Shown: positions 15,888 through 62,935, counted from the stretch's first letter. The stretch: 64,000 nt of DNA from Thermoanaerobaculia bacterium (GCA_038245905.1 JBBRRY010000014.1:20614-84613); one strand, 5' to 3'. Notes: generated by a model not told the origin, from the letters alone. A program made the numbers and translations.

Positions 15888-16105
15888 CGGCACGGCCGTC
15901 CGCATCGAGGTGCCGGCGGCGCTCGCCGAGAGGATCGAAGAGCCAGAAGGGGATTTCTTAGACGGATTAGGAGGCCTGGAGTTCTCGTCCACGGTCTCGA
16001 CGGACGGCAACGTCCTGATCTGGGTTGACTCCGTAGACCGGGCGGAGGCTCTCGCGAGGCTCGCCGCGATCGGACTTCCCGGCCTTTCCACCTTCGAAGA
16101 AATCC
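15845..16105. repeat. Dispersed motif: forward copies (centres 15857, 15960) and reverse copy (16096)
   Basis: GGATTCTTCGAAAGG, GGATTTCTTAGACGG, CCACCTTCGAAGAAATCC; spacing 136. Confidence 0.7.
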
Positions 16106-16731
16106 CCCGGGACTGGGTGGCCGAGTCGGCTGCTTTGAGGAGAGCGGTCCTCGTGGAGCGATATCTCTTCGATCCCCACGACGGCGACTTGGCTTCAGCC
16201 GTGCCGCCCGGCGTGCGGCGTCTCCATCTCCCCGCCGTCCGGGCCTTCGGGACGGGCTCGCACGAGTCCACGCGCCTCGCCGTGCGCCTCCTTCTCGCCC
16301 TTGACCTCCGCGGGGCGCGCGTCCTCGATGTCGGCTGCGGCACCGGAACGCTGGCTTTCGTGGCCGCGCTCGAAGGCGCACGCCACGTCATCGCGTTCGA
16401 CCTCGACCCCTATGCCGCGTTCGCGACGCGCGAGCAGGCGCGCGCGAACGGCATCCTCGGCGTTTCGGCATTCGCGGGGCCTCTCGACGCGCTCGCGGCG
16501 AAAACCCGCTTCGACGTCGTCGTCGCGAACATGATTCAGGAAGAGGTCGCGCCTCTGCTCCCGGCGATCCACGATCGCCTCGCGCCGAGCGGCCGGCTGC
16601 TGTGCTCGGGGCAGCTCGTGGAGAGGGAGGAAGACTTCCGATATTTGCTTCGGAAGACAGGCTTCCGGCCGGTCCGTTCGCTTCGAGAAAACGAGTGGTT
16701 CGGGTCAGCCTGGATTTCTTCGAATGGCTGA
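15877..16731 (+). CDS. prmA: Ribosomal protein L11 methyltransferase
   Basis: [31 protein letters not shown]; position after dnaJ. Confidence 0.88.
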
Positions 16732-17494
16732 GGACACTCTCTCTCGTCCGCCGCGCGTCTACGTGCCGGATCTCGCGGAGTTCCTGGGGAGCTCCGACGA
16801 GAACCTGAAGATTTCTTTGAAGGTGGAAGAGCGAGATCACGTCCGCTCGAGGCGCCTCACGGATGGCGACGAAGTCGTCGCGCTCGACGGAAAGGGCCTT
16901 CGGCTGCGCGCGACGCTGACTCGCAGCGGCTCGGCCTTGGCCCTCTTACCATTTAGGCAAATCTCCTCTTCCTCTGTTGTTTCTTCTTCTCTCCCCGGCG
17001 AGCCCGCGAATCGCGTGACCGTGCTGCTCGCGTGCGCGGAGCCCGCGCGGGTCGAATGGGCAATCGAGAAGGGCACGGAGTGCGGCGCGGCCGGCTTCGT
17101 GCTGCTGGACGCCGAGCGCTCCCAGCGTGCGCACGTTGCGGCGCTCTCGTCGCCTGCGCGGCTCGAGCGTCTCCGCCGCATCGCGGTCGAGGCAACGAAG
17201 CAGTGCGACCGAACTCTCGTGCCGGTCGTGGAGGGTCCGAAGAGCACGAAAGAGTTTCTTAGAGGGGGAAGAGGGAAGGAGACGCTGTTCGTAGCGGACC
17301 CCGCGGGTGCGCCGATGGGCTCGTTCGCGCCAGAAGCCGCGACGGTCGCCATCGGCCCCGAGGGAGGATTCGCTCCGTCCGAACTCTCTCAATTCAAAGA
17401 AAATCATTCTTTTGTTCTCTCTCTCGGTCCCCGCATCCTCCGCCTCGAAACGGCCGTGGTCGTGGCGCTCACGCGGTTGGTCGATCCCGGCTGA
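16724..17494 (+). CDS. rsmE: 16S rRNA m3U1498 methyltransferase
   Basis: IEKGTECG, EATKQC, IGPEGGF, SLGPRILRLETA. Confidence 0.92.
   Translation: MAEDTLSRPPRVYVPDLAEFLGSSDENLKISLKVEERDHVRSRRLTDGDEVVALDGKGLRLRATLTRSGSALALLPFRQISSSSVVSSSLPGEPANRVTVLLACAEPARVEWAIEKGTECGAAGFVLLDAERSQRAHVAALSSPARLERLRRIAVEATKQCDRTLVPVVEGPKSTKEFLRGGRGKETLFVADPAGAPMGSFAPEAATVAIGPEGGFAPSELSQFKENHSFVLSLGPRILRLETAVVVALTRLVDPG
16807..16970. repeat. Dispersed motif pair in rsmE (centres 16818/16954)
   Basis: GAAGATTTCTTTGAAGGTGGAAGAG ... CTCTTACCATTTAGGCAAATCTCC; spacing 136; weaker forward copies at 16651 and 16721. Confidence 0.7.
17250..17410. repeat. Dispersed motif pair in rsmE (centres 17261/17396)
   Basis: AGAGTTTCTTAGAGGGGGAAGAG ... 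CTCTCTCAATTCAAAGAAAATC; spacing 135. Confidence 0.7.
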
Positions 17495-17554
17495 GATCGC
17501 CGCCGGATCGGGCGGCTCGTTTCGGTTAGCATCCCCCCGAAGACGGAGGACGCG

Positions 17555-18502
17555 ATGAGCTTCGAAAACGTCAAGAAGGTCTGGATGAACGGGAAGCTGA
17601 TCGACTTCGCGGACGCGAAGATACACATCTTCACCCACGCCCTGCACTACGGGTCTGGCGTCTTCGAAGGGGAGCGCTGCTACAACACGGCGCGCGGGCC
17701 CGCGATCTTCCGCCTCGACGATCACCTCGACCGCCTCTTCTGGTCCGCGAAAATCTACCGGATGGTGATTCCGTACGCGATCGACCAGCTCCGGGAGGCG
17801 ACGCTCGAGGTCGTGCGCGCGAACGACTTCAAGGCGTGTTACATCCGGCCCCTCGTCTACCGCGGCTACGGCGCGCTCGGAGTCAACCCGTTCCCGAACC
17901 CCGTGGACGTGGCGATCGGCTGCTACGAGTGGGGAAAGTATCTCGGCGCGGACGCCCTCGAGCAGGGAGTCGACACGTGCTGCTCGTCCTGGATGCGCAT
18001 CGCGCCGAACACGATGCCCGCCATGGCGAAGGCCACCGCGAACTACGCGAACAGCCAGCTCATCAAGATGGAAGCGATCACGAACGGCTATCACGAGGGG
18101 ATTGCGCTCGATCACAACGGGCGCATCTCCGAGGGCTCTGGCGAAAATCTCTTCCTCGTCTGGAAGGGCCGCCTCTACACGCCGCCGCTCTCGGCCTCGA
18201 CGCTGCCCGGCATCACGCGCCTGTCCGTGATCCAGCTCGCGCGCGAGCTGGATTTCCAGATGGAAGAGAAGACGATTCCGCGCGAGATGATCTACGCGGC
18301 CGACGAGATGTTCTTCACCGGTACGGCCGCCGAAATCACGCCGATCCGCTCCGTGGACCGGATTCCGGTCGGGAACGGCAAACGCGGTCCGATGACGGAG
18401 GCTTTGCAGAAGGCCTTCTTCGACATCGTCGAGGGCCGGGTGGACGACCGATACGGCTGGCTGACGCCGGTCTATTCGGCGGTACCCACCGTCTCGCGGT
18501 AG
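17555..18502 (+). CDS. ilvE: Branched-chain amino acid aminotransferase
   Basis: HALHYGSGVFEG, AKATANY, EGSGENLF, LPGITR, GTAAEITP. Confidence 0.96.
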   Translation: MSFENVKKVWMNGKLIDFADAKIHIFTHALHYGSGVFEGERCYNTARGPAIFRLDDHLDRLFWSAKIYRMVIPYAIDQLREATLEVVRANDFKACYIRPLVYRGYGALGVNPFPNPVDVAIGCYEWGKYLGADALEQGVDTCCSSWMRIAPNTMPAMAKATANYANSQLIKMEAITNGYHEGIALDHNGRISEGSGENLFLVWKGRLYTPPLSASTLPGITRLSVIQLARELDFQMEEKTIPREMIYAADEMFFTGTAAEITPIRSVDRIPVGNGKRGPMTEALQKAFFDIVEGRVDDRYGWLTPVYSAVPTVSR

Positions 18503-18511
18503 GTCGTTCCC

Positions 18512-19288
18512 TCACGCACGCCTTCGCGTCGCGATCAGCTCGGCCACGATCGCGATCGCGATCTCCTCGGGGGACTCGGCCCCGATGTCGAGGCCGATGG
18601 GATTCTTCGCGCGGCCCAGCTCGTCTTCCGTGAAGCCCTCGTTCCGCAGCTCGTCGAAGAGGGCCTTACGCTTGGCCTTGCTGCCGATCATGCCGAGATA
18701 CGCGACGGGCGCGTGACGGAGGCGGCGGAACGCGAGGCCGTCCGTCACGTGCCCGCGAGAGACGATGGCCACGAAGTCCTTCGAATCCGGGAGCGGCAGG
18801 TCCGCATAGTCGTCCCCGACGTGGACGAGCCGGGCGCCGGGCGGGAAGGCGGCGGGGTCGAGCTGCTCCTCCCGCTCGTCCGCGACGGTGACTTCGTACC
18901 CGCTGAACGCCGCGGCGCGGGCCAGCGCGCGTCCGCAGTGGCCGGCACCCACCACGAGAAGGCGGGGCGCGCGCTCGACGATCTCGAGAAGAACGGACGC
19001 GCTCCCGCCGCAGACCGCGCCGAACGTGTTCTCACCTGTCGGGACGAACGGATAATCGCGCGTGAACGGGAGGCCGTGGGCCAGGAGCAGCTTCTTCGCG
19101 TCGGCGATGACGAGCGACTCGAACTTGCCGCCTCCGATCGTCCCCTCGGTTGCCCCGTCGGGCAGGACGAGCATCCGTGCCGTCGTCTCCCGGGGCGTGG
19201 AGCCCACGGCGGAGACGACCGTCGCCATCGCGAGCCGGCCGTGGCGCTCGAGGAGTCGCGGGAGCTCTACGAAGAATTGATGGCTCAT
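18512..19288 (-). CDS. XdhC/CoxI family molybdenum cofactor chaperone
   Basis: GSTPR, GTIGGG, CGG, GAGHCG, YLGMIGS, PIGLDIGAESPEEIA; start MSHQFF. Confidence 0.92.
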   Translation of the reverse strand: MSHQFFVELPRLLERHGRLAMATVVSAVGSTPRETTARMLVLPDGATEGTIGGGKFESLVIADAKKLLLAHGLPFTRDYPFVPTGENTFGAVCGGSASVLLEIVERAPRLLVVGAGHCGRALARAAAFSGYEVTVADEREEQLDPAAFPPGARLVHVGDDYADLPLPDSKDFVAIVSRGHVTDGLAFRRLRHAPVAYLGMIGSKAKRKALFDELRNEGFTEDELGRAKNPIGLDIGAESPEEIAIAIVAELIATRRRA

Positions 19289-19926
19289 GTGAGGAGATCC
19301 TCGGCCCTGTCGACGTCGTGGAGGATGGACTCGTCGAAGCCCTCGAGGTGCAGCACCTTCACGTCGGGCTCGGCGAAGAGGCGGTTTAGCCGCGCGGAGT
19401 CGGGCCACGAGAGGAGCCGCGCGCGCAGCGCCTCGGGGATCACGAGCGGGTGGCCGCGGCGGCGGGCGTGGGTGGGGACGACGACCGTCGTCTGGCTCGC
19501 TTCGACAGAACGCGCCGCGTCCAGAACCGTTCGGAGAGAAGATTTGCTTAGAAAGGGAAGATCGGCGGGGGAGATCGCGAAGTGCGTCGAAACGGGGCTC
19601 GCTGTGGCAAGGCCTGCCTTCACGGATGTGAACATCCCGTTCGGCCAGTTCACGTTCTCGACGAATCGCGGGGACGGAGCGGCTGATCCGTCCCCCGATA
19701 CCCTTCTAAGCAGGTTCTCTTCGATCGTGGCTCGAATGTCGGCGGCGCCGCATCCGAGGACAATGAGCAAATCGTCTATTCCCGCTTCCAGCCACGTCTC
19801 ACAGACTTTCTGAAGCAATGGCTTCCTGTCATTGCCGACCGGAGCGAGCATCTTCGGCGAGCCGAAGCGCGAAGAGGCGCCGGCCGCGAGGAGCACTCCG
19901 GAGACGAAGGCTTTAGGTCCGCTCAG
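19285..19926 (-). CDS. mocA: MocA-type molybdenum cofactor cytidylyltransferase (probable CTG start)
   Basis: LLAAGASSRFG.PK, GMFTSVKAG, ADLPF, GHP, DVD; lies in the xanthine-dehydrogenase-family operon. Confidence 0.85.
   Translation of the reverse strand: MSGPKAFVSGVLLAAGASSRFGSPKMLAPVGNDRKPLLQKVCETWLEAGIDDLLIVLGCGAADIRATIEENLLRRVSGDGSAAPSPRFVENVNWPNGMFTSVKAGLATASPVSTHFAISPADLPFLSKSSLRTVLDAARSVEASQTTVVVPTHARRRGHPLVIPEALRARLLSWPDSARLNRLFAEPDVKVLHLEGFDESILHDVDRAEDLLT
19537..19722. repeat. Dispersed motif pair in mocA (centres 19550/19707)
   Basis: AGAAGATTTGCTTAGAAAGGGAAG ... ACCCTTCTAAGCAGGTTCTCTTC; spacing 157. Confidence 0.7.
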
Positions 19927-20171
19927 TCTTCGCCCTCGAAGCACGCGCGACCGGCTCGGCAGTCGTCGAGGAACGCGGGCTGGCCGTCCGGGCCGACGGG
20001 CCCCATGACCTGCAGGCACCAGTACGCGGCCGACGTCGAGGGGTGCTCGCGGGCGTGATCCTCCCAGTTACCCGTCGCGACGAACATCGTTTTCGTGCGC
20101 AGGTGGCGGCAGCACAGCGCCGGGTCGAGCGTGACGGCGTCCGAGCCGCCGAGTCCGTCTTGCGCGCTCAT
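19923..20171 (-). CDS. Small Cys-rich hypothetical protein (82 aa) in the molybdoenzyme operon
   Basis: 4-bp start/stop overlaps with both neighbours; CCRHLRTK, YWC, GPDG, C-x5-C. Confidence 0.8.
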   Translation of the reverse strand: MSAQDGLGGSDAVTLDPALCCRHLRTKTMFVATGNWEDHAREHPSTSAAYWCLQVMGPVGPDGQPAFLDDCRAGRACFEGED

Positions 20172-21175
20172 GCGAATTCCTCCGTCCCGTCGGAGAGGCC
20201 GGCCGCCGCGAGAAGGGTCCGGCGGACGACGGCCGCGACCATCGGGAGCTTGTACGCGTTCTTTTCGAGAGGGGTCGCGCCGTCGAGCGCGGCCTGTCCG
20301 GCCTGCGCCGCGAGCGCCGCGTCGATTCTCTTGCCCTCGACGAGCGCCTCGGCCGCCTTCGCGCGGAACGGGACGGGCGCCGCGGAACCGATCACGATTC
20401 GGACGTCCTTCGCGACGCCGCCCGCGTCGCGGTATGCGACCGCCGCGTCCGCAAGCGGCCAGTCGAACGACTGCTTCTGCTTAATTTTCCGGTATGCCGA
20501 ACGCAGGCCTTGCGCCTTGTCGACGTGGATCTCCACAATCAGCTCGCCGGGCTTGAGCGCGTTCTCCGAGAAGATATCGACCTCTGGTCGCACGAAGAAG
20601 TCCGCGGCAGGGATCGTGCGCCCGCCGCCTGCCGCGAGCGTCTCGATCCGCGCGTTCAGGGCGAGGAGAGCGACGCCGGCCGCCGAAGGGTGGACGATCG
20701 CGCACGTGTTATTCCCGAAGACGGCATGGAATTCGTTCTCGCCGGATTTCGCGAGGCACTCGACGCCGCCCTTCTTGAGGCACTGGAACTCCGACGAGCG
20801 GAAGTACCAGCAGCGCGGGCGCTGGCAGAGGTTCCCCGCGAGCGTCGCCGCGTTGCGGATCTGCGGCGTCGCGGCGCCGAGGCAGGCGTCCGCGAGGGCG
20901 GGGAATTCGGACTTCAGGCCCTCCGCAATCGCACTCAATGTCACCAACGCGCCGATTGAGACGGCGCCGGAAGATTTTCTTTGAATGGAAGAATGGGACG
21001 TCAGCCGCCTCAGGTCCACGACCTGGTCCGGTGCCAGGTTGTACTCCTTCAGTCGGTCGAGGAGCTCCGTTCCCGCTCCCTTACCTTCAGAAGAAATCTT
21101 CTCTTTCTTCGCCTTGGCGAGGAGGCCGACCGCCTCCTCCCAGGACTTCGGCTGCAACCTTTCGAAGCTCTTCAC
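20168..21175 (-). CDS. FAD-binding subunit, PaoB/YagS type, with a Cys cluster for 4Fe-4S
   Basis: GAGTELL, ATPQIRNAATLAGNLCQRPRCWYFR..C..C..C, NAYKL; GTG overlaps upstream TGA. Confidence 0.93.
   Translation of the reverse strand: MKSFERLQPKSWEEAVGLLAKAKKEKISSEGKGAGTELLDRLKEYNLAPDQVVDLRRLTSHSSIQRKSSGAVSIGALVTLSAIAEGLKSEFPALADACLGAATPQIRNAATLAGNLCQRPRCWYFRSSEFQCLKKGGVECLAKSGENEFHAVFGNNTCAIVHPSAAGVALLALNARIETLAAGGGRTIPAADFFVRPEVDIFSENALKPGELIVEIHVDKAQGLRSAYRKIKQKQSFDWPLADAAVAYRDAGGVAKDVRIVIGSAAPVPFRAKAAEALVEGKRIDAALAAQAGQAALDGATPLEKNAYKLPMVAAVVRRTLLAAAGLSDGTEEFA
20970..21110. repeat. Dispersed motif pair in the FAD subunit gene (centres 20982/~21089)
   Basis: GAAGATTTTCTTTGAATGGAAGAA ... CTTACCTTCAGAAGAAATCTTCTC; spacing about 107. 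Confidence 0.7.
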
Positions 21176-23529
21176 GCCCTCACCTCCCGCTTCGGGACCT
21201 TCCCGAGCGCATCGAGGATCCTTGCTGGCGTGATCGGGAGTGCCGTCGGCCGGATGCCTGTGGCGTGCGCGATCGCGTTGGCGACCGCGGCAGCCGTCGG
21301 CACCGTCGCGGGCTCGCCGATGCCGCGCGCGTGCGCGTTGTTCTTTCCCGGGTAAAAGTCCACGAGGAGCGGGACGATCTCCGGCGCGTCCTTGCTCCCG
21401 AGGACCTTGTAGAACTCGACGTTCGGGTTCAGCACGCGGCCGGAGCGCTCGTCCACGATGCGCTCCTCGAAGAGTGCGTAGCTGATTCCCTGAAGAATCC
21501 CGCCGCGGATCTGGCTCTCGACGCCCGTCTTCCACACGGGCTGGCCGCAGTCGTGGACCGCGACGACCTTCTTCACGGCGACGACGCCGGTCTCGACGTC
21601 CACGACGACCTCGGCGAACTGCGCTCCGAAGATCCGGGTGTCGCTTCCGTCGTAGTCCTTCGCGCGGTCGCCCGTCGCGACGAGCGTCTCGCCGGGCAGG
21701 CGCGAGCACACCTTCCTGAATTCCGCGGTCTTGCCCTTCGCGGAAAAGACGCCGTTCGCGAGCGCGACCTCGGACGCGGGCGCGCCGAGGAGGTTCGAGG
21801 CGACGTCGAGGAGCTTCTCGCGCGCGTGAACCGCGGCGGCGCGGACGGCCGGAATGAGGGACCCGGTCGTGACGGAGCCGCCGGAGGCGGGCCCGAACGG
21901 AAAGCGCGAATCGCCGATCTTCACGCGGAGGCTCTCCACGGGCAGACTCAGCTCCTCGGCGACGACCATCGCGATCGGGTTGCGCACGCCGCCCCCGATG
22001 TCCTGGACGCCGTTCTCGACCTCGACGCTCCCGTCGCGGTGGATCCGGACGAGGACCTGCGAGCCGGGCGCGACGAACGTGTACCAGAGGGACGCGGCGC
22101 AGCCGAGGCCGCGGCGGAGCGGGCTTCCCGCGGCCGCGGCGGCGGCGTTCGCCTTCGTGATCTCGGCCCGCCGGGACCAGCCGAACTCCTTCGCTCCGAT
22201 TTCCCACTCGGCGCGCCGGACCTCGGAGGGGTCGTTCTGGAGCCGGAGCGCGAGCGGGTCCATCCCGAGCTTGTCGGCAAGCGCTTCGAGCGCCGTCTCG
22301 ACCGCGAAGCAGCCCTGCGGGTGGCCGGGTGCGCGCATCGCGCAGCCGGGGCCGAGGTGCGTGAAGACGTCCGACTCAGCGACCTTCACGGCCGGAAATC
22401 CGTACGCGGACTTCACGAATCCGCCCGTGCCCGTTCCCGTCGCGACACCGGCGGTGCCGAAGGACTCGTAGTCGGCGGCCGTCACGGTCCCGTCCTTCCG
22501 GTAGCCGAGCTTCACGCGGTTCCACGAGTCGGGGCGGTTTCCGGACGACAGCTGATCCTCCTTGCGGTCGAGGACCATGAGGACCGGCTTGCCGGCCTTC
22601 TTTGCGAGCTTCGCCGTGAAGACGCCGTAGTCGCGCGCGCCGAACTTCGAGCCGAAGCCGCCGCCCGCGAACTCGGCGCGGACGATGACCTTGTCCTTCG
22701 CAAGCTTGAACACCTCGCTAAGCTCGTCCCGCACGCTGAACGTTCCCTGGGTCGACGCTGTGACCTCGAGCGTGTCGCCGACCCACTCGGCGAACATCGA
22801 GTGCGTTTCCATGCAGACGTGCGTCTGGACGGACGTCGTCGTCACGACCTCGAGCGTCCCGTCCGCCTCGGCGAAGCCCTTGTCGACGCCGCCGTTTTCG
22901 CCCTTGAGCGAGTTCTTCGGCCCGCGGACGTTGCCGGTCTGCGGAAGGACGGCCGCGGCGCCGGGCTCGTCGCCCGCGCTGCGCTTCTCCTCGACGGGCT
23001 TCTGGAAAACGAGGGGCGAGCCCTCCTTCCGGGCGGCCGCGAGGTTCACGGTGTGCGGGAGGACGTCGTAGGCGATCTTGACGGCGCGAAGGGCGCCTTC
23101 CGCGGCCGCGGGCGTCGGCGCGGCGAGGGCGAGGATCGCTTCGCCGTGATACCGGACAATGGTCTTTTTCGGGTTCTCGATGACGACGCCGGGGACTCGT
23201 TCGGCCTGAGAGGTGTCGATCGAGAGGATCTTTGCGTGGGCGTGGGGCGAGCGGACGATTCGCGCGTGAAGCATCCCCGGCTTCCGCACGTCGTGCGTGT
23301 AGACGGCGCGGCCCGTGACCTTGATCGGGCCATCGAGTCGCGGGCGGCGGCGCCCCGTCACGGGCCGAGGCCCGACCGGATAGGGCGCTGGGTCGCCAGG
23401 AGGAAGAGAGATTTTCTTAGAAAGTGTGTGGCCAGCGAGCCCGATCTCGACCGTCACTGTGGCTCCCGCTGCCCCTGGCACCTTCAAAGAAGTCTTTTCT
23501 TTCTCTTTCTCTTTTTTCTCCTCAGCCAT
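21172..23529 (-). CDS. Molybdopterin-binding subunit, PaoC/YagR type
   Basis: KVTGRAVY, RSPHAHA, GGGFGSK, AMRAPG, QDIGGG, GIGEP. Confidence 0.94.
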   Translation of the reverse strand: MAEEKKEKEKEKTSLKVPGAAGATVTVEIGLAGHTLSKKISLPPGDPAPYPVGPRPVTGRRRPRLDGPIKVTGRAVYTHDVRKPGMLHARIVRSPHAHAKILSIDTSQAERVPGVVIENPKKTIVRYHGEAILALAAPTPAAAEGALRAVKIAYDVLPHTVNLAAARKEGSPLVFQKPVEEKRSAGDEPGAAAVLPQTGNVRGPKNSLKGENGGVDKGFAEADGTLEVVTTTSVQTHVCMETHSMFAEWVGDTLEVTASTQGTFSVRDELSEVFKLAKDKVIVRAEFAGGGFGSKFGARDYGVFTAKLAKKAGKPVLMVLDRKEDQLSSGNRPDSWNRVKLGYRKDGTVTAADYESFGTAGVATGTGTGGFVKSAYGFPAVKVAESDVFTHLGPGCAMRAPGHPQGCFAVETALEALADKLGMDPLALRLQNDPSEVRRAEWEIGAKEFGWSRRAEITKANAAAAAAGSPLRRGLGCAASLWYTFVAPGSQVLVRIHRDGSVEVENGVQDIGGGVRNPIAMVVAEELSLPVESLRVKIGDSRFPFGPASGGSVTTGSLIPAVRAAAVHAREKLLDVASNLLGAPASEVALANGVFSAKGKTAEFRKVCSRLPGETLVATGDRAKDYDGSDTRIFGAQFAEVVVDVETGVVAVKKVVAVHDCGQPVWKTGVESQIRGGILQGISYALFEERIVDERSGRVLNPNVEFYKVLGSKDAPEIVPLLVDFYPGKNNAHARGIGEPATVPTAAAVANAIAHATGIRPTALPITPARILDALGKVPKREVRA
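23403..23523. repeat. Dispersed motif pair at the 5' end of the Mo subunit gene (centres 23419/23486)
   Basis: GAGAGATTTTCTTAGAAAGTG ... CACCTTCAAAGAAGTCTTTTC plus long TC tract; spacing 67. Confidence 0.72.
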
Positions 23530-24148
23530 GTTTCACCTCCGCCTTCGCGGCCGCGTCGCACGCGGCGAAGACGCCTCCGTACGTCCCGCACCGGCAGAGG
23601 TTGCCGGCCACTGCCTCCTTCACATCGTGCGCGGTCGGGTGGGCGTTCTTCGCGAGGAGCCCGGTGCAGGAGACGACCATCCCGGGTGTGCAGAAGCCGC
23701 ACTGGAGCGCGTCCGCGTCGACGAAGGCTCTCTGAATCGGGGACATGGCGTCGGGGGAGCCGAGACCTTCGATCGTCGTGACCTTCCGCCCGTCCGCGTC
23801 GTGGACCAGCGTGAGACAGGAGTTCACGGCGAGGCCGTCGAGAAGGACCGTGCAGGCGCCGCAGGCGCCGCGGTCGCATCCGATCTTCGTGCCCGTCATC
23901 CCCCACGAATCGCGCAGCGCCTCGGCCAGTGTCGTGCGAGGCTCGAACAGGCCCTTCTTCACGGCGCCGTTCAGCGTGATGCTGACGGGCAGCCCGCCGC
24001 CCGCGAAGGTTGCGGCCTTCGCGCGCTCTTCGGCGAGCACGGCGGCCCCCGCGGTGGCGGAGGCGACGGCGGTCGTCGCAAGGCCCTTGATGAGTCCGCG
24101 GCGGGTGAATCCGCCCGTGCCGTCCCGATGGTCTCTCTCGTCGGCCAT
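23522..24148 (-). CDS. 2Fe-2S subunit, PaoA/YagT type, with Tat signal
   Basis: FTRRGLIK twin-arginine, GCDRGACGACTV, QCGFCTPG, GNLCRCG; SD AGGAGG before ATG 24148. Confidence 0.94.
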   Translation of the reverse strand: MADERDHRDGTGGFTRRGLIKGLATTAVASATAGAAVLAEERAKAATFAGGGLPVSITLNGAVKKGLFEPRTTLAEALRDSWGMTGTKIGCDRGACGACTVLLDGLAVNSCLTLVHDADGRKVTTIEGLGSPDAMSPIQRAFVDADALQCGFCTPGMVVSCTGLLAKNAHPTAHDVKEAVAGNLCRCGTYGGVFAACDAAAKAEVKHG

Positions 24149-24207
24149 GACCCCTCCTGAAGCAGTGGGGACTATACCGCCGTCCCGCGGAGAATCCGTC
24201 GCGTCCG

Positions 24208-24237
24208 TTGACGGCAAGTGCCTGAAAAGCCTATCCT
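24208..24237 (+). promoter_or_regulatory. Putative sigma70 promoter for pilT-recX-alaS
   Basis: TTGACG (24208-13), 18 nt spacer, TATCCT (24232-37). Confidence 0.4.
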
Positions 24238-24270
24238 TGCCGCTATTCCGGAGTGATCGGGAGGGCCTCG

Positions 24271-25449
24271 ATGCACATCAACGACCTGCTCAAGATCTCG
24301 GTCGAGCGGAAGGCGTCCGACCTCCACCTGAAGGTGGGTGCGCACCCGATCATTCGGGTGGATGGCGAGCTGATTCCTCTCGTGGACCTCAAGCGCCTCA
24401 TGCAGGAAGACACGATCGCGATGGCGTTCTCGATCATGTCTTCCCGGCAGAAGGAAAAGTTCAAGAACAACTTCGAGATCGACATCGCATACTCGGTGCC
24501 GGGCCTCGGGCGATTTCGCTGCAACATCTTCCAGCAGCGAGGCACGGTCGGAATGGTCTGCCGCGTAATCCCGGCCCGCATCCTCACGATCCGCGACCTC
24601 CTGCTCCCGCCCATCCTGGAGCGGATCTGCGAGGAGACGCGCGGCCTCATCCTCGTGACAGGCACGACGGGCTCGGGCAAGTCCACGTCGCTCGCGGCCA
24701 TGATCGACCAGATCAACTCCTCGCGAGCCGAGCACATCATGACGATCGAGGACCCGGTCGAATTTCTCCATCGGGACAAGAAATCGATCATCAACCAGCG
24801 CGAGCTCGAGGTCGACACGCGCTCGTTCGCGTCGGCCATCCGGGCGGCCCTCCGGCAGGATCCCGACGTCATTCTCGTGGGCGAGATGCGCGACTTCGAG
24901 ACCGTGGAGACAGCGCTCGTGGCGGCCGAGACCGGCCACCTCGTCATGTCGACCCTCCATACGATGGACGCGACGGAGACGGTCAACCGCATCATCTCGG
25001 TCTTTCCGCCGCACCAGCAGAAGCAGATCCGTCTGCAGCTTGCGGCCGTCATCAAGGCCGTCTGCTCGATGCGGCTTCTCCCGCGCGCGGACGGTCTCGG
25101 GCGCGTGCCGGCCGTCGAGGTCCTGATCGCGACGAACTACATCCGCGATTGCATCGAGAACAAGGAAAAGACGAAGTACATCCACGACGCCATCAAGGCC
25201 GGCACCTCGCAGTACGGGATGCAGACGTTCGACCAGTCGCTTTTCCAGCTCTACAAGACAGGTCTCATCACGCTGGAAGAGGCGGTCCGCCGCTCGAGCA
25301 ACCCGAACGAGTTCAAGCTCAAGATCCAGGGCATCCAGTCCACGTCGGACATGGCGAACGAGCAGATGGAGGCATCTCTCGAGTCGCCGGACGCCATGAA
25401 TCCGCAGGACACGGCGTCGCCCTTCGACTTCTCGAACCAGCCCGGCTGA
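24271..25449 (+). CDS. pilT: Type IV pilus retraction ATPase PilT family
   Basis: ASDLHL, GTTGSGKST, TIEDPVE, ALRQDPDVILVGEMRD, GHLVMSTLHT, GMQTFDQ. Confidence 0.95.
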   Translation: MHINDLLKISVERKASDLHLKVGAHPIIRVDGELIPLVDLKRLMQEDTIAMAFSIMSSRQKEKFKNNFEIDIAYSVPGLGRFRCNIFQQRGTVGMVCRVIPARILTIRDLLLPPILERICEETRGLILVTGTTGSGKSTSLAAMIDQINSSRAEHIMTIEDPVEFLHRDKKSIINQRELEVDTRSFASAIRAALRQDPDVILVGEMRDFETVETALVAAETGHLVMSTLHTMDATETVNRIISVFPPHQQKQIRLQLAAVIKAVCSMRLLPRADGLGRVPAVEVLIATNYIRDCIENKEKTKYIHDAIKAGTSQYGMQTFDQSLFQLYKTGLITLEEAVRRSSNPNEFKLKIQGIQSTSDMANEQMEASLESPDAMNPQDTASPFDFSNQPG

Positions 25450-25455
25450 CCCGAA

Positions 25456-25906
25456 TTGGACGCCTCGAGCGCCGCGCTGGCCGCCCTGGCCCGGCGCGCG
25501 CACACACGACGCGAGCTCGAGCAGAAGCTCGGTCGCAAGGGTTTCGACCGCGCGGAGATCAGGATTCTGCTCGACGACTTCGAAGAGCATGGCCTGCTGA
25601 ACGACGCGAAGACGGCCACCGCACTCGCGGCGTGGCGCCTCCGGACCGGGCGGGGGCGCAGCCGCATCGCGTCCGAGCTGGCGGGGAAGGGCGTTTCCCG
25701 AGCGGACGTGGACGCGGCGCTCGCGTCTCTCGACCCTCGAGACGAGGCGGAGGCCCTGCGGGCGGCCCTCGAGAGGCGCGGACGCGCCCTCCCGGCCGGA
25801 TTGACGCGGCAGGCCCGGTCGAAGAAACTGTTCGACCACCTCGTGAGGCGCGGGTTCGCCCCCGCCGCCATCCTCGAGGCGCTGCACAGGAAAGGCGATT
25901 CCACGG

Positions 25907-25920
<14 letters not shown>
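25456..25920 (+). CDS. recX: Regulatory protein RecX (TTG start)
   Basis: LARRAHT..EL..KL..KGF, GLLND, GR.RI..EL..KGV, LVRRGF; directly upstream of alaS. Confidence 0.85.
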
Positions 25921-28648
<2,728 letters not shown>

Positions 28649-28683
28649 GCCCCTGTATCCCTCTGGTTTATAATATTAGGGCG

Positions 28684-29427
28684 ATGCCGTCTCTCAGGAT
28701 TGGTCTGGCGCGGGTGTCGGTTGCGGCTTTGCTCGCGGCGTCGAATGGGCTCCACGCGGACGTCCATCTCGTGCGGCAGGCGAACGGTTCGGCGCTGATC
28801 TTCAACGACAGCGTTGGCAGCGGCTGGCGCGTGAACGGCGGCGTCCCCTCGGACAGCTACCTCGTCTCGCGCCGGAGCACGCCGACCCCTTACGATACGG
28901 CGATCGAGAGCGAGGCCCGGGCGGCGGGCGTCGATGCGGCTCTCGTCAAGAGCGTCATGCTCGTGGAGTCCAACTACAACCCGCGCGCGGTTTCCCGAAA
29001 GGGCGCCCGCGGCCTCATGCAGCTCATGCCGGAGACCGCCCGTCGCTTCGGGGTGTCGGACCGCCACGACGCGGGTCAGAGCATCCGGGCCGGCGTCCAT
29101 TATCTGGCAACCCTCCTCGAACAATTCAAAGGCGATGTCTCGCTTGCGCTCGCGGGATACAACGCCGGCGAGGGCGCCGTTGCGCGGCACGCGGGCGTTC
29201 CGCCCTATCGCGAGACGCGCGAATACATCCGGCGGGTCCTCGTGGCGCGTCATGGCGAGGGAGCCGCGTCTCCCGCAATCGGGGGCGGATTCCGCGGGAC
29301 GAAGACCGGCCCTGTCCTGCGCACGTCCTCGGTGCGCGTCTCGAACCAGAACGGAACCCGCGTGTTCTCGAATACGGCCGTGGAATTCGCGGAGCGACAG
29401 GCGCCGGCTCTCGGGCGCGTGCGCTGA
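28684..29427 (+). CDS. Secreted SLT-family lytic transglycosylase
   Basis: Signal peptide, VESNYNPRAVSRKGARGLMQLMP, LAGYNAGEG, ETREY. Confidence 0.93.
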   Translation: MPSLRIGLARVSVAALLAASNGLHADVHLVRQANGSALIFNDSVGSGWRVNGGVPSDSYLVSRRSTPTPYDTAIESEARAAGVDAALVKSVMLVESNYNPRAVSRKGARGLMQLMPETARRFGVSDRHDAGQSIRAGVHYLATLLEQFKGDVSLALAGYNAGEGAVARHAGVPPYRETREYIRRVLVARHGEGAASPAIGGGFRGTKTGPVLRTSSVRVSNQNGTRVFSNTAVEFAERQAPALGRVR

Positions 29428-43382: not shown

Positions 43383-43514
43383 TCGTGAAAGCCAATGAAC
43401 GGTCGCGGCCGCTCTCTATCGGATTCATCGGTCCGCTGCCCCCCACCCGGTCCGGCATCGCCGACTACGACTCCGAAATCCTCTCTTCACTTTCTAAGCA
43501 AATCTCTCTTTCCC
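43301..43514. repeat. Dispersed motif pair spanning two GT genes (centres 43313/43495)
   Basis: AGAGGCTTTGAAAGGGTGAGAG ... CTCTCTTCACTTTCTAAGCAAATCTCTCTTTCCC; spacing 182. Confidence 0.68.
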
Positions 43515-47732: not shown

Positions 47733-47975
47733 TTACTTCTTGGCGGGGGCGGAGGTCGTGGTGGCCGTGGAGACCGTCGTGGTCGTGGTCGCCGTCGTGG
47801 CCGTCATGGCGTCCGGAGCGGTGCTCGTCGTGGTCGTGGTCGTCGTCTTGGCGGTCTCTTCGACGACCTTCGGGGCCTCGGTCTTCATTTCGGGCTTCTT
47901 CTCCTCGGGCTTGGCGCAGGCAACGAGTGAGAAGGAGACGGCGACGAGGGCGAGGGCGGACATGAACTTCTTCAT
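47733..47975 (-). CDS. Small Thr-rich lipoprotein (80 aa)
   Basis: SD AAGGAG, MKK + hydrophobic core + LVAC lipobox, poly-Thr tail, own terminator. Confidence 0.85.
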   Translation of the reverse strand: MKKFMSALALVAVSFSLVACAKPEEKKPEMKTEAPKVVEETAKTTTTTTTSTAPDAMTATTATTTTTVSTATTTSAPAKK

Positions 47976-52248: not shown

Positions 52249-52255
52249 CGGAATC

Positions 52256-55200
52256 ATGGCAAGCAAACGCGACGCGCTCGTAGCTTCGGCCGAGAAGTCC
52301 CTGGCGAAGGGAAAGGTCGATTCCGCTCTCAAGGACTACCAGAAGGTCCTCGAGGAGACGCCGGGCGACGTCAACATCCTGAACAAGGTCGGCGACCTCC
52401 TCACGCGCCTGAACCGGAACGAGGAGGCGATCCCGTATTTCACGAAGATCGCCGAGCACTTCGCGCGGGACGGCTTCTTCCTGCGCGGCATCGCGATCTA
52501 CAAGAAGATCAACCGCCTGGATCCGTCGCGCCTCGACGTGTACGAACGGCTCGCCGAGCTCTACGCCAAGCAGGGCCTCCTCACCGAGGCGAAGAGCCAG
52601 TACCAGGTTCTCGCGGACTATCACGCGAAGAACGACAACGCCGTCGGTGCGGTCGGGATCTACCAGAAGATGGTCCAGACGGATCCGTCGAATATTCAGC
52701 TTCACGTGAAGCTGGCGGACCTTTACACCCAGGCCCGCCGCAAGGTCGACGCCCTGAAGGAATACGCCGTCGTCGCGGCCCTTCTGCGCGAGCGCGGGGC
52801 CATCGACGAGTCGATCCAGGTCTACGAGAAGGCGCTCCAGATGGCGCCGGACAACGCCGAGATCCTGCGGTCGTTCGTCCCGATCCTGCTGACGTCCGGC
52901 CGTGCGAAGGACGCGCGGGCGGCACTGCGCCGCGCGCTCGAAGCCACTCCGCGCTCGGTCCCGCTTTTCCTCATGTCGGCCGAGGCCGCGCTCGCCGACG
53001 GCGACATGACGGACGCCCAGGAATGGCTCTCGAAGGCCCAGTCGATCGAGCCCTCCGGGGCTGAAGTGGTCGCTCTCGCGCTGAAGATCCAGCAGGCCGG
53101 AGGCACGACGATTCTCTCGTTCGAGGCCGCGGCGGTCCTTGCGGATCAGGCGATGCGGCGGGGTGAGGCGAAGAAGGCTCTCTCCATCCTCGCGCCGCTT
53201 GCGGAGGCGAATCCGGGCCGGGAAGACGTGCTCCAGCGCGTCATACAGGTCGCGGAGGCGGCTGGCGACGCGCCCTCGGTGGTCCGCTGGCGGTCGGCCC
53301 TGGTCGATCTCCACAAGGGTCAGGGCCGCATCGGGGATGCCGCCACGGGCCTGAGAGTCCTTCTGCAGCTCGTGCCCGACTCGGCGGAGTACCGGATGAG
53401 GCTCTCGCAGCTGGAGCCGCCGGTCGCCCGGGTCGACGCGGATCGAACCGGGTCGCGGGGCGCTCCGACGATTGCCGTGGTTCCGCCGCTCGAGACGAGC
53501 GGGAAGCGGCCGCGACCCTCCCCCGAGTCGACCGGCCAGAGGCGCCTTCCCGTCGAGCCTGCGGCCCCGATTCCGCCGCCTCCGTCCTTCGCTCCTTCAC
53601 CGGCGGCCCCCAGCGCCACGGAAGGAGAGTTCATTCTCGACTTCGAGGACGATCAGCTCCTCCCTGAGCCGGGCTCGACGGGGCCGATTCCGAACGCCGT
53701 ACGCCGCCTCTCGCAGCCCGGGATGACCTCGTTCGCTCCGCCTCCTTCTCCCGTCACGGTCGTGCCGCCCCGGCTGCCGCTTCCTCCAGCGGAGCGCCTC
53801 GAGAGCGCGGTCGAAGCGGAGCCGGCTCCGGCGCCGCCGTCTCTCGAGGAACCCGGCTTCAACTGGTCCGATGCGCCTCGTCCCGCGCCCCGCGAGACCG
53901 ACCTCGAGGTCTCGGCGGCGCTGCCCGGTGAGGGATTCCGGCCTGCGACCGGATTTGTTCCCCTTCCGGACGAGGGAGACGTCGAGTTCTCCGGCGAGCC
54001 TCTTCCGGCCGTCGAGGCCGCGCCGCCGTCTGCGCCGCCGCACGCGCCGCCGCAGGAGCCCGAAGTCGCCGTGCCCGCCGAGGCCCTTGGCTCGGATGCG
54101 GTCGAGTCCGCGCTCGCCGAGGCCGATGTTTTTCGCAAGTACGGCCTCTACGACAAAGCCGTCGACCATCTTCGCGGAGTCCTGAGGCGCGCGCCGGACA
54201 CTCTTGCGCTCCGGGAGAAGCTCTTCGAGCTTGCGCTCGAGGGCGGGAGGAAGAAAGTCGCGCTCGCCGAGGCCGAGCGGCTGAAGACTCTTTACCGCGC
54301 TGCCGGGCGGGACGACCGCGTCTCGGCGATCGACGCCCTCCTCGTCGAGCGCACGAGTGCCGAGATGGGCGAGGGAACGGATTCTTCGGGCCTTCCCGCC
54401 GCTCTCCGGCAGACGCTTCCACCGTCTACCCCGTCCGTCAAGGTTCCCGAAGTCCCGGCAGCCGACGCGCCGGCGAAGCCCGCGGAGCCGGCTGGAGCGC
54501 CAGAAACGGAACCGCCGGCGGACGAGCTCCTCGAGATCGATTTCTGTCTCGAGCAGGGCATGGTCGTGGACGCTTCCGAGAGACTCCAGGCGCTCGAGCG
54601 GAAGTTCGCCGGACACGCTCAGCTCGTGAGGCGCCGCACGCGGCTCGACGGCGGAGGTGGCGAGGATTCGCGCCCCGCTCTCCGCGACATCCTCTCGGAG
54701 GACTTCGAGTCGGTCCTGGATGCCGAATTAGGGCGCGCGCTCACCGAGGAAATGACGCGCGGGGCCGAGAGCGCGCCTCCGGTGGCGCCGCCGCCTGCGC
54801 CTTCGCCTCCCATGGACGAGTCGGCGCTGTTCTCGGACGAGCAGGAGTTCTTCAACTTCGCGGGCGAGCTGCAGACGGAGATGAAGCAGGAGTCCGGCGC
54901 TCCGGAACCTCCCGAGGTCGGCGGGGGAGACGTCCCGCTCGAGGAGATCTTCCGGGAGTTCAAGAAGGGCGTCGAGCAGCAGCTTTCGCCCGAGGACTAC
55001 GAGACGCACTACAACCTCGGCATCGCGTACAAGGAAATGTCCCTCACCGACGAGGCGATCAGCGAGTTCCAGCGCGCCGCGAAGAGCCCGCAGTACGCGG
55101 TGGAATGCTGCTCGATGCTCGGTTTGTGCTTCCTCGAGAAGGGCCTCCCGCAGCTCGCGATCAAGTGGTACCGCAAGGGACTCGACGCCCCGAACATCCG

Positions 55201-55357: not shown

Positions 55358-55385
55358 GACGCGCCGGGCTCTCCTGAGATCCGCC

Positions 55386-57367: not shown

Positions 57368-57458
57368 CGAGGCCTCGAGGGAAACTTTTTCGCCCCGGTT
57401 CCGTAATGTCTGACGAATGGTCTTCCACTATTATCCTCTTCGGTTTCAGGAGGTTCCC

Positions 57459-59869: not shown

Positions 59870-59877
59870 GGCGGCCG

Positions 59878-60660: not shown

Positions 60661-60681
60661 TCCGCCCGCTACACTCCGCTG

Positions 60682-61554
60682 ATGCTGACGGATGTCTTCG
60701 CGCTGGTGCTCCTCCAGCTCGCGCTCGGCGTGGCGTTCTGGACGGCGGTCACCTCGTCGAAGGATTTGTCGGGGGGATTTTTTGTTCTGCACGCGGGCAC
60801 CGTCGCCATCTGTCTTTCACTCGTGTGGCTGGTGTCAGGCAGTAGAGAAGATTTGCTTGGAAAGGGGATGGCGGCGGAGTCGGTGCCGCTCGTGGCGCCG
60901 CGGTTGCTTCTCCTCGCGGCGCTCGGGGCGGCCATTGCGGCAACGCTTGCGGCGCGCCTGAGCACGCCGGCAGCTCTTACCCTCTCAAAGAAATCTCTCT
61001 TTCTTTCTCTTAGCAGAATCCTCCTCTTCTCGTCTTTCCTCCTCTCTTTCGCCCTTCTCTTCTCACGGCTGAGCGGCGAACCGTTCCTTTCTCGCCGCGG
61101 CCTGGGCCCGCTGTGGCTCTTCGGCGGGCTGCTGCTCGGAGCGCTCCTTTTCGGCGCTGTCGTTTGGGCGATGAATCTCGGGCACTGGTATCTCGTCTCG
61201 TCCTCGATCCCTTTCATCCTTCTCGTGCGGGCGACCGAGGCGTTCGCCGTGCTCGCGGTTCTGCGCACGGCCTACGCTGCGGTCGCCCTCGGCGCCCTCG
61301 CGAGCGTGTCGACCGGCGAGGCGGGGGAGGCGCTCGCGAGCCTTCTCGACCCGATGCGCGACGGTTTCTTCTTCTGGTCGCGCGTGCTGTGGGGTCTCGC
61401 AGCGCCGCTCCTCCTCGCCCCGTTCGTCGTGAAGACAGCGCGGATGAAGTCCAACCAGGCGGCGACGGGCCTTCTCTATGTGGGCCTCGTCTTCGTCCTC
61501 GTGGGCGAGCTTCTCGCTTCCTATCTCACGTTACGGTCGGGACTTCCCGTCTGA
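60682..61554 (+). CDS. Polytopic membrane protein with GHWYL and NQAATGLLY motifs
   Basis: About 8 hydrophobic helices; AMNLGHWYL and SNQAATGLLY look conserved; function unknown. Confidence 0.75.
   Translation: MLTDVFALVLLQLALGVAFWTAVTSSKDLSGGFFVLHAGTVAICLSLVWLVSGSREDLLGKGMAAESVPLVAPRLLLLAALGAAIAATLAARLSTPAALTLSKKSLFLSLSRILLFSSFLLSFALLFSRLSGEPFLSRRGLGPLWLFGGLLLGALLFGAVVWAMNLGHWYLVSSSIPFILLVRATEAFAVLAVLRTAYAAVALGALASVSTGEAGEALASLLDPMRDGFFFWSRVLWGLAAPLLLAPFVVKTARMKSNQAATGLLYVGLVFVLVGELLASYLTLRSGLPV
60845..61062. repeat. Dispersed motif pair in the membrane protein gene (centres 60859/60987)
   Basis: GAGAAGATTTGCTTGGAAAGGGGA ... CTCTTACCCTCTCAAAGAAATCTCTC plus long TC tract; spacing 128. Confidence 0.7.
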
Positions 61555-62713
61555 AGGCGGCGCGCGGCCCGGGGAGCGTGGCCGAGAGCGCGGCCGCGAG
61601 AAGCGGAAGACCCGCGAGAACCGGGAAAACGGCCGCGACCCCCTGACGGTCGGCGAGGGCCCCGAGCAGCGGCACGCCGATGCCCCCGATCCCGATCGCG
61701 AGACCCATTGTCACGCCGCCCGCGATGCCTTCACGCCCGGGCAGGTACTCCTGACCCAGGACCACGGCGACGCTGTAGGTGCCGACCGTGCCGGCTCCGA
61801 TCAGGACGAGGCTGAGGAGACCGGCGGGCCCCGGCGCACGGAGGAAAAAGAGGAGGAGCGGTGCGAGGGGGAGAAGGAAGCCGACGAGAACCGCGCGGCG
61901 GCCGAAGCGATCCGCCAGACGGCCGCCCGCCAGAGTGGCGAGGGCCCCGGCCAGGAGCATCGCCGTCACGGCGAGAGCCGCCTTCTCCTTAGCGACTCCG
62001 CGGACCGTCACGAGATACAGGGGAACGAACGAGACGAGGCCAAAGGCGAACAGAGAGCGGATGACGATGACTCCGGAGAGTCTCGCGAACGCTCCCCATC
62101 GCGGCCGGTCGGCGCCGCCCCGGTCGAGCCGCTGTGTGGCCTGGTGCCTCAGGGGCCGCAGGCGCGGAAGCTCGCGAACGAGGAGAGCCGCCATGAGTCC
62201 GGCGGGCACGATCATCCAGGTCACGCGCGCGACGCCTCCGGACCCCGCCAGGGCCGCGATCGCGACCGGCCCGAGGGCGATGCCGAGGTTTCCCCCCACC
62301 GAAAACACGCTCATGCCGGTCGCGCGGCGCTCGCCGGACGCATAGTTCGCGTAGCGCGCGCTCTCGGGATGGAACGCCGCGACGCCCGCGCCTGAGATCA
62401 GGACCGCGGCGATCGTCGCCGGATAGCTCGTGACGGCGCCGGCGAGCGCGAGGCCGCCTCCCGCGGCGAGGACGCCGAGCGGGATGAGAAAGGGAAGAGG
62501 GCGGCGGTCGGAGAGGTGCCCGAGAAGCGGCTGGATGAGGGAGGAGAGCAGCGTCGCGGCGAGGACGATCCCGCCCGCCGCCGCGTACGTCAGCCCCCGC
62601 TCGGCGATGAGGAACGGCAGCAGCGCTGGCACGGCTCCCTGGTTCATGTCGTTGACGACGTGCCCGGCGGCGAGCCAGGAAAGGGCGCGGCGGTCGAGGG
62701 ACCTGCTGACCAT
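61526..62713 (-). CDS. MFS transporter (Fsr-like)
   Basis: H..ND, QPLLG.LSDR, AAFHPE, FSVGGNLG, GGRLADRFGRR. Confidence 0.92.
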   Translation of the reverse strand: MVSRSLDRRALSWLAAGHVVNDMNQGAVPALLPFLIAERGLTYAAAGGIVLAATLLSSLIQPLLGHLSDRRPLPFLIPLGVLAAGGGLALAGAVTSYPATIAAVLISGAGVAAFHPESARYANYASGERRATGMSVFSVGGNLGIALGPVAIAALAGSGGVARVTWMIVPAGLMAALLVRELPRLRPLRHQATQRLDRGGADRPRWGAFARLSGVIVIRSLFAFGLVSFVPLYLVTVRGVAKEKAALAVTAMLLAGALATLAGGRLADRFGRRAVLVGFLLPLAPLLLFFLRAPGPAGLLSLVLIGAGTVGTYSVAVVLGQEYLPGREGIAGGVTMGLAIGIGGIGVPLLGALADRQGVAAVFPVLAGLPLLAAALSATLPGPRAAFRREVPTVT

Positions 62714-62728
62714 GTGGAGCGAATGGTA

Positions 62729-62935
62729 GAAGAAGATTTTCCTTCGGAAGAAAGAAAGAGAAAAGAGAGAAAAGAAAGATTTCTTTGAAAGTGGAGGAGA
62801 GAGCGGCCATCTAGTGGTGCATGCTCCTTCCGTGCGCGTATCGGTTTATTGCTCCGAATGCATGGAGCGGATCGAGCTGCCCCCGCCCGCCTCGGAGGCG
62901 GCTGGCCAAGTCGAATGCCCTTCTAAGAAATCTTC
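62729..62935. repeat. Dispersed motif: forward copies (centres 62745, 62786) and reverse copy (62924)
   Basis: Long GA tract, AAAGATTTCTTTGAAAGTGGAGGAGAG ... CCCTTCTAAGAAATCTTC; spacing 138. Confidence 0.72.

Follow-up and report, generated by a model that had tools for sequence, protein, structure and literature searches.

Head-to-head paired DNA sites, most of them inside genes, in one genus of uncultured Thermoanaerobaculia

Correia elements and the palindromic elements of Rickettsia are insertions of 100-300 bp with inverted terminal arms and a shared interior, and some of their copies are translated in frame. HIP1, a hyper-abundant word maintained by selection inside the genes of cyanobacteria, has remained unexplained in function for decades; the portion of its literature at hand raises possible links to methylation, transformation and gene transfer. 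The uptake sequences of Pasteurellaceae (uptake signal sequences, USS) and Neisseriaceae (DNA uptake sequences, DUS) lie preferentially in poorly conserved genes and positions, according to the available part of PMC2817400. REPINs, in the available part of PMC3116915, have palindromic cores and spacings fixed at 71 and 110 bp, form hairpins in which changes compensate one another, and are linked to a RAYT gene; they are extragenic, in that the 1,067 most abundant 16-mers include no more than 14 that fall on genes. The subject of this report is a paired element that recurs in a 64,000-nucleotide stretch of DNA from a Thermoanaerobaculia bacterium (GCA_038245905.1, JBBRRY010000014.1:20614-84613; the whole stretch is referred to as the window, and positions are counted from its first letter) and throughout the genome to which it belongs. 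Two copies of a long asymmetric site (the arms of the pair) face each other across DNA that belongs to the host. This architecture fits no repeat family tested: it fails defining features of REPINs, miniature inverted-repeat transposable elements (MITEs), terminators and known RNAs.

The motif was recovered from the sequence alone, by k-mer enrichment in the window together with a listing of TTCTNNGA sites, and consists of a purine tract followed by GATTTCTTNGAAGGTGAAGAGGG; the word shared in the k-mer enrichment is roughly GATTTCTTNGAAGGTG, with purine-rich flanks. There are 12 copies of TTTCTTNGAA in the window against 0.20 expected, and none of 100 dinucleotide shuffles reaches 12. Across the whole assembly (3.80 Mb in 113 contigs, 68% G+C; genome G000) the 10-mer TTTCTTAGAA is found 56 times and its complement 53 times, where ~0.2 copies of each are expected. 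Alignment of 393 seeds brings out an invariant core whose surroundings, between roughly -22 and +25, are rich in purines on the strand of the core. Scores of a 20-column position weight matrix (PWM) are bimodal; with 18 bits or more defining a strong site, the genome has 568 strong sites, divided 290 to 278 between the two strands. Longer views show GAAGAG-like repeats in an outer tract, next to them the core and beyond it GGTGAAGAGGG; about a tenth of arms have a further CGAAGAG box ~10-20 nt upstream. A nhmmer profile built from 250 arms yields 228 matches at E<=0.01, a sensitivity no better than that of the PWM, and a whole-window repeat finder recovered just one pair (I20), most pairs having been missed because the arms are short and degenerate.

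The arms obey a strict rule of orientation. A preliminary description of the window had listed twelve forward-then-reverse pairs, all of which are reproduced by a PWM scan at 8 bits or more; their distances exceed the earlier values by a constant 5 bp, because the centre is defined differently. The forward-then-reverse centre distances in the window are 141, 141, 140, 162, 112, 72, 180, 79, 218, 66, 187, 286, 133 and 143 bp, of which the two additional ones (218 and 286) involve weak sites. The same description reported no close reverse-then-forward arrangement, with the nearest at 307 bp. That observation stands: the nearest clean case lies at 302 bp, and closer ones at 10 and 160 bp involve sites below 11 bits. 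Genome-wide, the orientation classes of strong sites are likewise unequal. Forward-reverse neighbours lie within 300 bp of each other in 159 of 184 cases and reverse-forward neighbours in 6 of 164, a 26-fold asymmetry (the sign-test probability for 159 versus 6 is near 1e-39); same-strand neighbours lie this close in 21 of 86 cases (forward-forward) and 23 of 75 (reverse-reverse). A strong partner is found 25-300 bp inward of 338 of the 568 strong sites, and a partner of at least 8 bits inward of 432, against 12 and 37, respectively, with outward partners. Head-to-head pairing thus covers 60-76% of sites. The asymmetry recurs in a second species, in which 400 kb have 45 of 51 forward-reverse and 6 of 50 reverse-forward neighbours close together, and in 120 environmental metagenome contigs retrieved by means of the arm sequence (90 of 99 versus 2 of 43).

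The spacing of the arms is another matter. Three preferred classes of distance had been proposed, at 61-74, 128-138 and 175-182 bp. Measured with the centres used in that proposal, these hold 46, 35 and 7 of 405 pairs from this genome, the second species and the metagenome contigs (pairs that are not all independent, because some are orthologous), and the gaps at 75-127 and 139-174 bp hold 165 and 63. The three clusters are a small-sample effect. Spacing forms a single broad distribution that runs without gaps between 31 and 300 bp. It has an abrupt rise near 65 bp (centre-to-centre distances are mostly at least 65 bp), a peak at 65-95 bp, a median of ~117-122 bp and a tail to 300 bp. Periods of 3, 10, 10.5, 11 and 21 bp were looked for in 159 pairs and none was detected (Rayleigh p 0.31-0.72). 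The earlier suggestion of a two-site architecture bound by a protein that loops or wraps a ~65-bp unit, or multiples of it, is therefore retained in its orientation-specific, two-site part and finds no support as to wrapping or looping, there being neither multiples of 65 bp nor a period. The value of ~65 bp is a lower bound only, about where two arms reaching ~25-30 nt inward would abut.

Among named organisms, those with the closest relatives of the alaS gene are uncultured Thermoanaerobaculia (phylum Acidobacteriota), and the motif is restricted to a single genus of that class. The exact pattern GATTTCTTNGAARG has 98 copies in this genome and 49-204 in each of 24 of 24 genomes of the same genus; in 16 genomes from elsewhere in the order, drawn from two further families, the count is 0-2. 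The motif read backwards, as a control, has 0 copies in every genome of the genus. In a class-wide draw of 151 genomes, tens of copies occur only in the genus (this genome and 9 of 9 others); six genomes of the same family but of four other genera have 0-2 copies, and the 141 other genomes of the class overall have 0-3. A screen for exact paired 9-mers in 400 kb of a sister genus (G082) turned up no analogous AT-rich word, in an insensitive test that barely detects the real motif in 400 kb of the present genome. Two of the genomes used, G025 and G030, are unpublished and contribute outgroup rows to the counts of GATTTCTTNGAARG and of the Pfam domain PF01797; G025 also figures among the 4-5 outgroups of the AlaS, RsmE and PrmA alignments. 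All conclusions hold with the remaining outgroups alone.

Within the genus, sites are conserved by position. Among 24 orthologues of 15700-17600 (71-78% DNA identity), the sites centred at 15958+, 16099-, 16816+, 16957-, 17259+ and 17399- recur almost everywhere, and an extra pair occupies the dnaJ-prmA spacer in a subset of species. A comparison with G020 finds an orthologous site of at least 12 bits for 50 of 70 sites, against 2 of 70 when the region compared is shifted by 400 bp as a control; of the 18 sites without a match of at least 8 bits in G020, ~10 are alignment offsets and not real losses. Third-codon-position entropy is 0.56 in cores versus 0.89 elsewhere (p=0.002; 6 cores). A coarser pairwise measure gives an identity of 0.73 for cores and 0.74 outside the arms (20 pairs). 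Since core identity is no higher than that outside, it is the recognizable motif that is kept, and not every base.

Most sites lie in genes. Coding DNA accommodates 433 of the 568 (76%), 209 of them in sense and 224 in antisense orientation and in all three frames; the 135 intergenic sites amount to 24% of sites in ~7% of the genome, a 3.4-fold enrichment. The 159 strong pairs divide into 113 contained in one gene, 25 wholly intergenic, 17 with one intergenic arm and 4 that extend across two genes; the earlier remark that pairs can straddle gene boundaries thus applies to 21 of the 159. Pairs between genes take up the entire spacer and begin 25-50 nt past a stop codon (34 sense sites fall in that bin). 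Unpaired sites (36 sense, 41 antisense) have no transcription-strand bias. The use of all frames and both strands favours the conclusion that the sites act at the level of DNA and not of protein or messenger RNA.

Nineteen of the genes richest in sites were inspected and proved to be ordinary core genes, among them those of two class I tRNA synthetases, Ser/Thr kinases, acyl-CoA ligases, alanine racemase and a NuoG-like subunit, as well as hisD; leuS is also among the site-bearing genes. Site density varies with the G+C content of third codon positions (GC3), from 0.238/kb in the lowest quartile of genes to 0.063/kb in the highest, a ~4-fold difference obtained with the motif masked, and sites are located in variable segments of the encoded proteins in the AlaS, RsmE and PrmA comparisons. 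Thirty-eight of 154 20-kb bins of this genome lack any site.

The DNA between partners had been described as ordinary and mutually unrelated, which an all-versus-all comparison of 138 interiors bears out: just 3 match, and these lie in paralogous kinase genes. (Those Ser/Thr kinase genes, on contigs C11 at ~59934, C24 at ~11451 and C25 at ~29581 of G000, have a pair in the same place with the same 96-bp spacing; the pairs either predate the gene duplications or have been kept in all copies.) Protein alignment with outgroups identifies the interiors as native host coding sequence. An example is the conserved FYPEGGGQV block of AlaS, which does lie, as first noticed, between partners centred at 27398+ and 27578-. 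Cores overlie existing codons of AlaS, PrmA and RsmE, and the outer purine tracts coincide with small Glu- or Ser-rich insertions of 5-15 residues. Between species, short indels change the length of the purine tracts, and some few arms come and go as indels of ~45-70 nt, with low-complexity flanks that blur any target-site duplications. The sites do not appear to have been inserted as mobile units.

Links to mobile DNA were sought in other ways. An autonomous parent element was considered and rejected, as the DNA between forward-reverse neighbours at distances of 300-6000 bp consists of ordinary genes unrelated to one another, with no transposase-sized repeated unit. The Y1/RAYT transposase domain (PF01797) was not found in this genome and is present in 3 of 24 genomes of the genus and 11 of 16 outgroup genomes; it is common in two sister families, with up to 9 copies per genome. 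Judged from these counts, the genus that bears the motif appears to have largely lost the usual REP machinery. A 21-nt arm has no match in viral contigs, and a 15-nt core matches 84 stretches of viral contigs once each, mostly in AT-rich contigs and at a level consistent with chance.

Table 1. Paired and unpaired copies of the motif in the window (coordinates of the 20-column matrix match; scores in bits)
Feature	Forward arm	Bits	Reverse arm	Bits	Location	Basis
Pair 1	15948-15967	20.6	16089-16108	27.1	inside prmA, N-terminal domain	PWM, Pfam PrmA
Pair 2	16806-16825	28.6	16947-16966	10.4 (degenerate)	inside rsmE	PWM
Pair 3	17249-17268	25.3	17389-17408	24.0	inside rsmE	PWM, orthologues, RsmE alignment
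Pair 4	19538-19557	27.0	19700-19719	17.6		PWM
Pair 5	20970-20989	30.1	21082-21101	13.2	junction of FAD-binding and molybdopterin subunit genes, dehydrogenase operon	PWM, Pfam
Pair 6	23407-23426	31.6	23479-23498	27.6		PWM, Pfam
Pair 7	27389-27408	16.8	27569-27588	25.5	inside alaS	PWM, outgroup alignment
Pair 8	28178-28197	20.4	28257-28276	24.6	inside alaS	PWM
Pair 9	41510-41529	18.8	41576-41595	21.2		PWM
Pair 10	43301-43320	10.9 (weak)	43488-43507	27.4		PWM
Pair 11	60847-60866	22.3	60980-60999	24.7		PWM
Pair 12	62774-62793	30.8	62917-62936	25.7		PWM
Unpaired strong site	5075-5094 (+)	29.3				PWM
Other unpaired sites	centres 323+, 15854+, 16718+, 26828+	at least 17.6				PWM

The host genes identified in the window by Pfam are dnaJ, prmA, rsmE, alaS and those of three molybdopterin dehydrogenase subunits. 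Individual pairs (Table 1) illustrate how the arms are accommodated. Both arms of pair 1 are kept in nearly all of the 24 orthologues. The reverse arm of pair 2 reaches 18-32 bits in most orthologues and coincides with a Ser-rich insertion relative to outgroup RsmE. Pair 6 directly follows the stop codon that closes the 2Fe-2S subunit gene and lies, on the minus strand, where the large-subunit gene starts. The arms of pair 7 overlie native AlaS codons, as judged by alignment with outgroup AlaS; the reverse arm of pair 8 falls in a 15-residue insertion relative to outgroup AlaS and is also present in the G020 orthologue. The reverse arm of pair 12 is degenerate in G020, where 15 nt are deleted.

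Some further features of the window were recorded along the way. In the alaS reverse arm (28275-28290, minus strand) the CGAAGAG box forms a 5-bp hairpin before the T-rich core and was flagged by a terminator scan; seen at this arm alone, it is likely to be a coincidence. The dnaJ-prmA spacer (~15885-15900) of three orthologous loci (L012, L013 and L018) holds another, G+C-rich insertion of ~45 nt (a G run, a short loop and a C run) in the spot of the extra motif arm of other species; it may be another repeat family or a terminator. Overlapping CGTGGT/CGTCGT repeats at 47748-47856, with periods of 9 and 18 nt (family D1), look like an Arg-Gly-rich low-complexity coding stretch, and direct repeats 162 and 324 bp apart at 52336-52840 (families D2 and D3) suggest a protein with tandem 54-residue repeats. 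Summed contig depth over 24340-25273 and 25741-26674 is 5-40 times that of neighbouring bins in four sediment or metagenome runs, which is probably due to contigs of other organisms aligning to very conserved parts of genes, and not a signal of copy number.

What calls for explanation is the combination of arm anatomy, orientation rule, restriction to a genus, positional conservation, overlay on coding sequence and indifference to the transcribed strand. A plausible, if tentative, reading of these comparisons is that the pairs are double-stranded-DNA recognition sites of a genus-specific protein, accumulated and kept as DNA uptake sequences are. Each arm would be an asymmetric site of ~45-60 bp, read as double-stranded DNA, with a purine tract made up of GAR-like repeats on the outside, followed by the AT-rich core ATTTCTTNGAA and by GGTGAAGAGGG; a genus-specific protein or complex would recognize it. 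The working unit would be a facing pair of arms whose centres lie between ~65 bp (almost abutting) and ~300 bp apart, and the protein would engage both arms at once. Sites may have been written into existing DNA by substitutions and small expansions of purine tracts, wherever the protein sequence tolerates them, and would then be kept by purifying selection or by a drive process, much as uptake sequences accumulate in competent bacteria. The role might be self-DNA recognition in uptake, recombination or repair (a first guess) or that of a site for a nucleoid or bridging protein (a second). Intergenic enrichment, density in genes of low GC3 and placement in variable segments make the sites look like a tolerated or drive element, and the genome contains ComEC, DprA and a ComEA-like gene, which permit a role in uptake and say no more than that.

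A number of considerations weigh against this reading. The competence genes say little because they are widespread, and the protein that would read the sites is putative. Known uptake sequences act as single sites, and we know of no described uptake sequence that needs a head-to-head partner. Their density is several-fold higher, roughly one site per 1-3 kb (from counts in the available part of PMC2817400 and approximate genome sizes) versus 0.15/kb here. The placement of the present sites is clustered and not even, with a variance of 3.2 versus a mean of 1.9 units per 20 kb, and the absence of 10-11 bp phasing speaks against a rigid protein bridge over such short loops. All counts by coding status, strand and frame are based on gene calls from a crude codon-bias caller (3,111 genes covering 93% of the genome), and the Pfam check of host genes covers 26 genes. 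A more far-reaching version, possible but doubtful, would make the pairs an undescribed chromosomal bracket element, in which genus-specific machinery reads two inward sites and acts on the native DNA between them (in self-DNA uptake, repair or segmental gene conversion, for example), rewriting hundreds of housekeeping genes throughout the genus.

Readings at the level of RNA fare less well. The preliminary description had held the spacing to be too long for terminator hairpins, and pairs outside genes are in fact not enriched between convergent genes (2 of the 46 non-intragenic pairs lie there, and 113 of 159 are wholly inside one gene), so that they are not terminators. Bidirectional terminators were also rejected on the basis of a terminator scan (9 found versus 9.4 expected) and of the spacing, σ70-type promoters because none of 4 promoter-like sites in 15000-29000 coincides with an arm, anti-Shine-Dalgarno mimicry because the 3' tail of 16S RNA is ordinary in five genomes of the genus and a required A position is variable in the motif, and a known RNA family because Rfam has no match in the window. 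It remains to consider an RNA-level or single-strand element in which a 5' purine arm base-pairs over a long range with a complementary 3' pyrimidine arm, the resulting stem influencing processing, Rho access or translation, a proposal that we regard as unlikely. A forward-reverse pair is identical on both strands, hence every transcript carries the purine arm 5'. Minimum-free-energy folds join the arms by at least 10 bp in 130 of 144 pairs (a figure without a control), and arm-arm pairing appears in 2 of 3 folded pairs, on both strands; G-U pairs allow a purine tract to match a pyrimidine tract in a variety of registers, needing no covariation; and the forward arm holds a Shine-Dalgarno-like AGGTGA, which lies directly before the prmA start codon in some orthologues. 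Partner arms, on the other hand, are no more alike than random ones (summed identity 27.99 versus 27.54 +/- 0.30 when shuffled, with no position beyond z=2.1). Their duplex energy of -35.5 kcal/mol is not an improvement on the -34.1 of unrelated arms or the -36.2 of random genomic 54-mers, and z-scores of 6 folds range from -1.9 to +0.4. In 24 orthologues no more than 42-56% of arm positions are pairable in any register tried, slid registers being equally good. For a stem the order of the arms would be immaterial, yet the opposite order is almost absent, and the unpaired sites show no preference for the sense strand. The null results for covariation, energy, folding, Rfam and strand, together with the order rule, therefore favour recognition of duplex DNA, in which the asymmetry of an arm would be read relative to that of its partner; an RNA role for the pair as a whole is less probable.

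Of the DNA-level alternatives to protein recognition sites, selfish DNA is rather improbable. The arms would be the terminal inverted repeats of an old miniature transposon family, relic or active, or sites homogenized by conversion, with no present function for the host. An inward inverted layout and a size of 65-300 bp are typical of miniature inverted-repeat elements, and the filling of whole spacers by intergenic pairs, the arms that come and go as indels and the small protein insertions at outer tracts all have a place in such a history. However, the interiors are native conserved coding sequence, without similarity to one another save in the 3 paralogous cases; no transposase-sized repeated unit is enclosed, and the REP transposase was not found here and occurs in few genomes of the genus; and the motif is strong at orthologous sites despite ~25% DNA divergence, unlike unselected relics. 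Very much less probable is it that the arms are recombination sites of an invertase or excisionase acting on invertible or excisable segments. They are, to be sure, inverted repeats of one sequence around short segments, in the strict orientation that a recombinase synapse would impose, but flipping or deleting the interiors would destroy essential genes (alaS, leuS, another class I tRNA synthetase gene and hisD), and orientation as well as reading frame is intact in all 24 aligned orthologous regions. Public assembled contigs covering 15000-29000 have no strand-changing joint at arms among the joints listed, contigs being apt to drop rare forms. A by-product of composition or codon usage, without sequence-specific cause, is practically untenable. 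The flanks are GAR-rich, as is Glu/Lys/Arg-rich coding DNA, and sister genera of similar G+C over-use GAAGAAGAA; but those genera have just 0-3 copies of the motif, and the controls refute the idea: enrichment is at least 60-fold over dinucleotide shuffles, the backwards motif is absent, all frames and both strands are used, and orientation is 26-fold asymmetric.

Among known systems, uptake sequences, REPINs and HIP1 come nearest to the pairs. As with USS and DUS, a lineage-specific short word occurs in hundreds of copies, in all frames and on both strands of genes, at weakly constrained positions that are kept between orthologues, in a genome that has competence genes. The present sites differ in that most of them form head-to-head pairs with a spacing of 65-300 bp and hardly any the opposite order, in a several-fold lower density, and in an arm that is much longer (~45-60 bp) and includes purine tracts. 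The sufficiency of a single site, a feature of USS and DUS, is not seen here, where 338 of 568 strong sites have an inward partner and 12 of 568 an outward one. REPINs, as described in the available part of PMC3116915, share over-representation as inverted doublets, doublets that are commoner than singlets, and long-term vertical persistence; they differ in that here 76% of sites are coding, the spacer is variable and unrelated from pair to pair, the arms do not covary and no Y1 transposase was found in this genome. The HIP1 word is likewise abundant inside genes, but it is an 8-bp palindrome without orientation or pairing, as far as the sources at hand describe it, and the site here is long, asymmetric and paired. 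Correia and Rickettsia palindromic elements differ in their interiors, which here are the host gene's own sequence and different at every locus. No described equivalent turned up in literature searches on inverted repeats within coding DNA and on repeats of Thermoanaerobaculia, which does not prove that there is none.

Hyper-abundant intragenic words are rare windows on genome-wide DNA transactions; uptake sequences, Chi and HIP1 are among the examples, and several took decades to understand. The present motif is conserved so strongly that it constrains the codons of alaS, leuS, prmA, rsmE and a large number of further core genes. Its presence or absence divides sister genera cleanly, and the responsible protein should therefore be findable by phylogenetic profiling; the motif is, in addition, a ready metagenome marker for the genus. 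It combines features that none of uptake sequences, Chi and HIP1 has: a long asymmetric site, a strict head-to-head rule and restriction to one uncultured acidobacterial genus.

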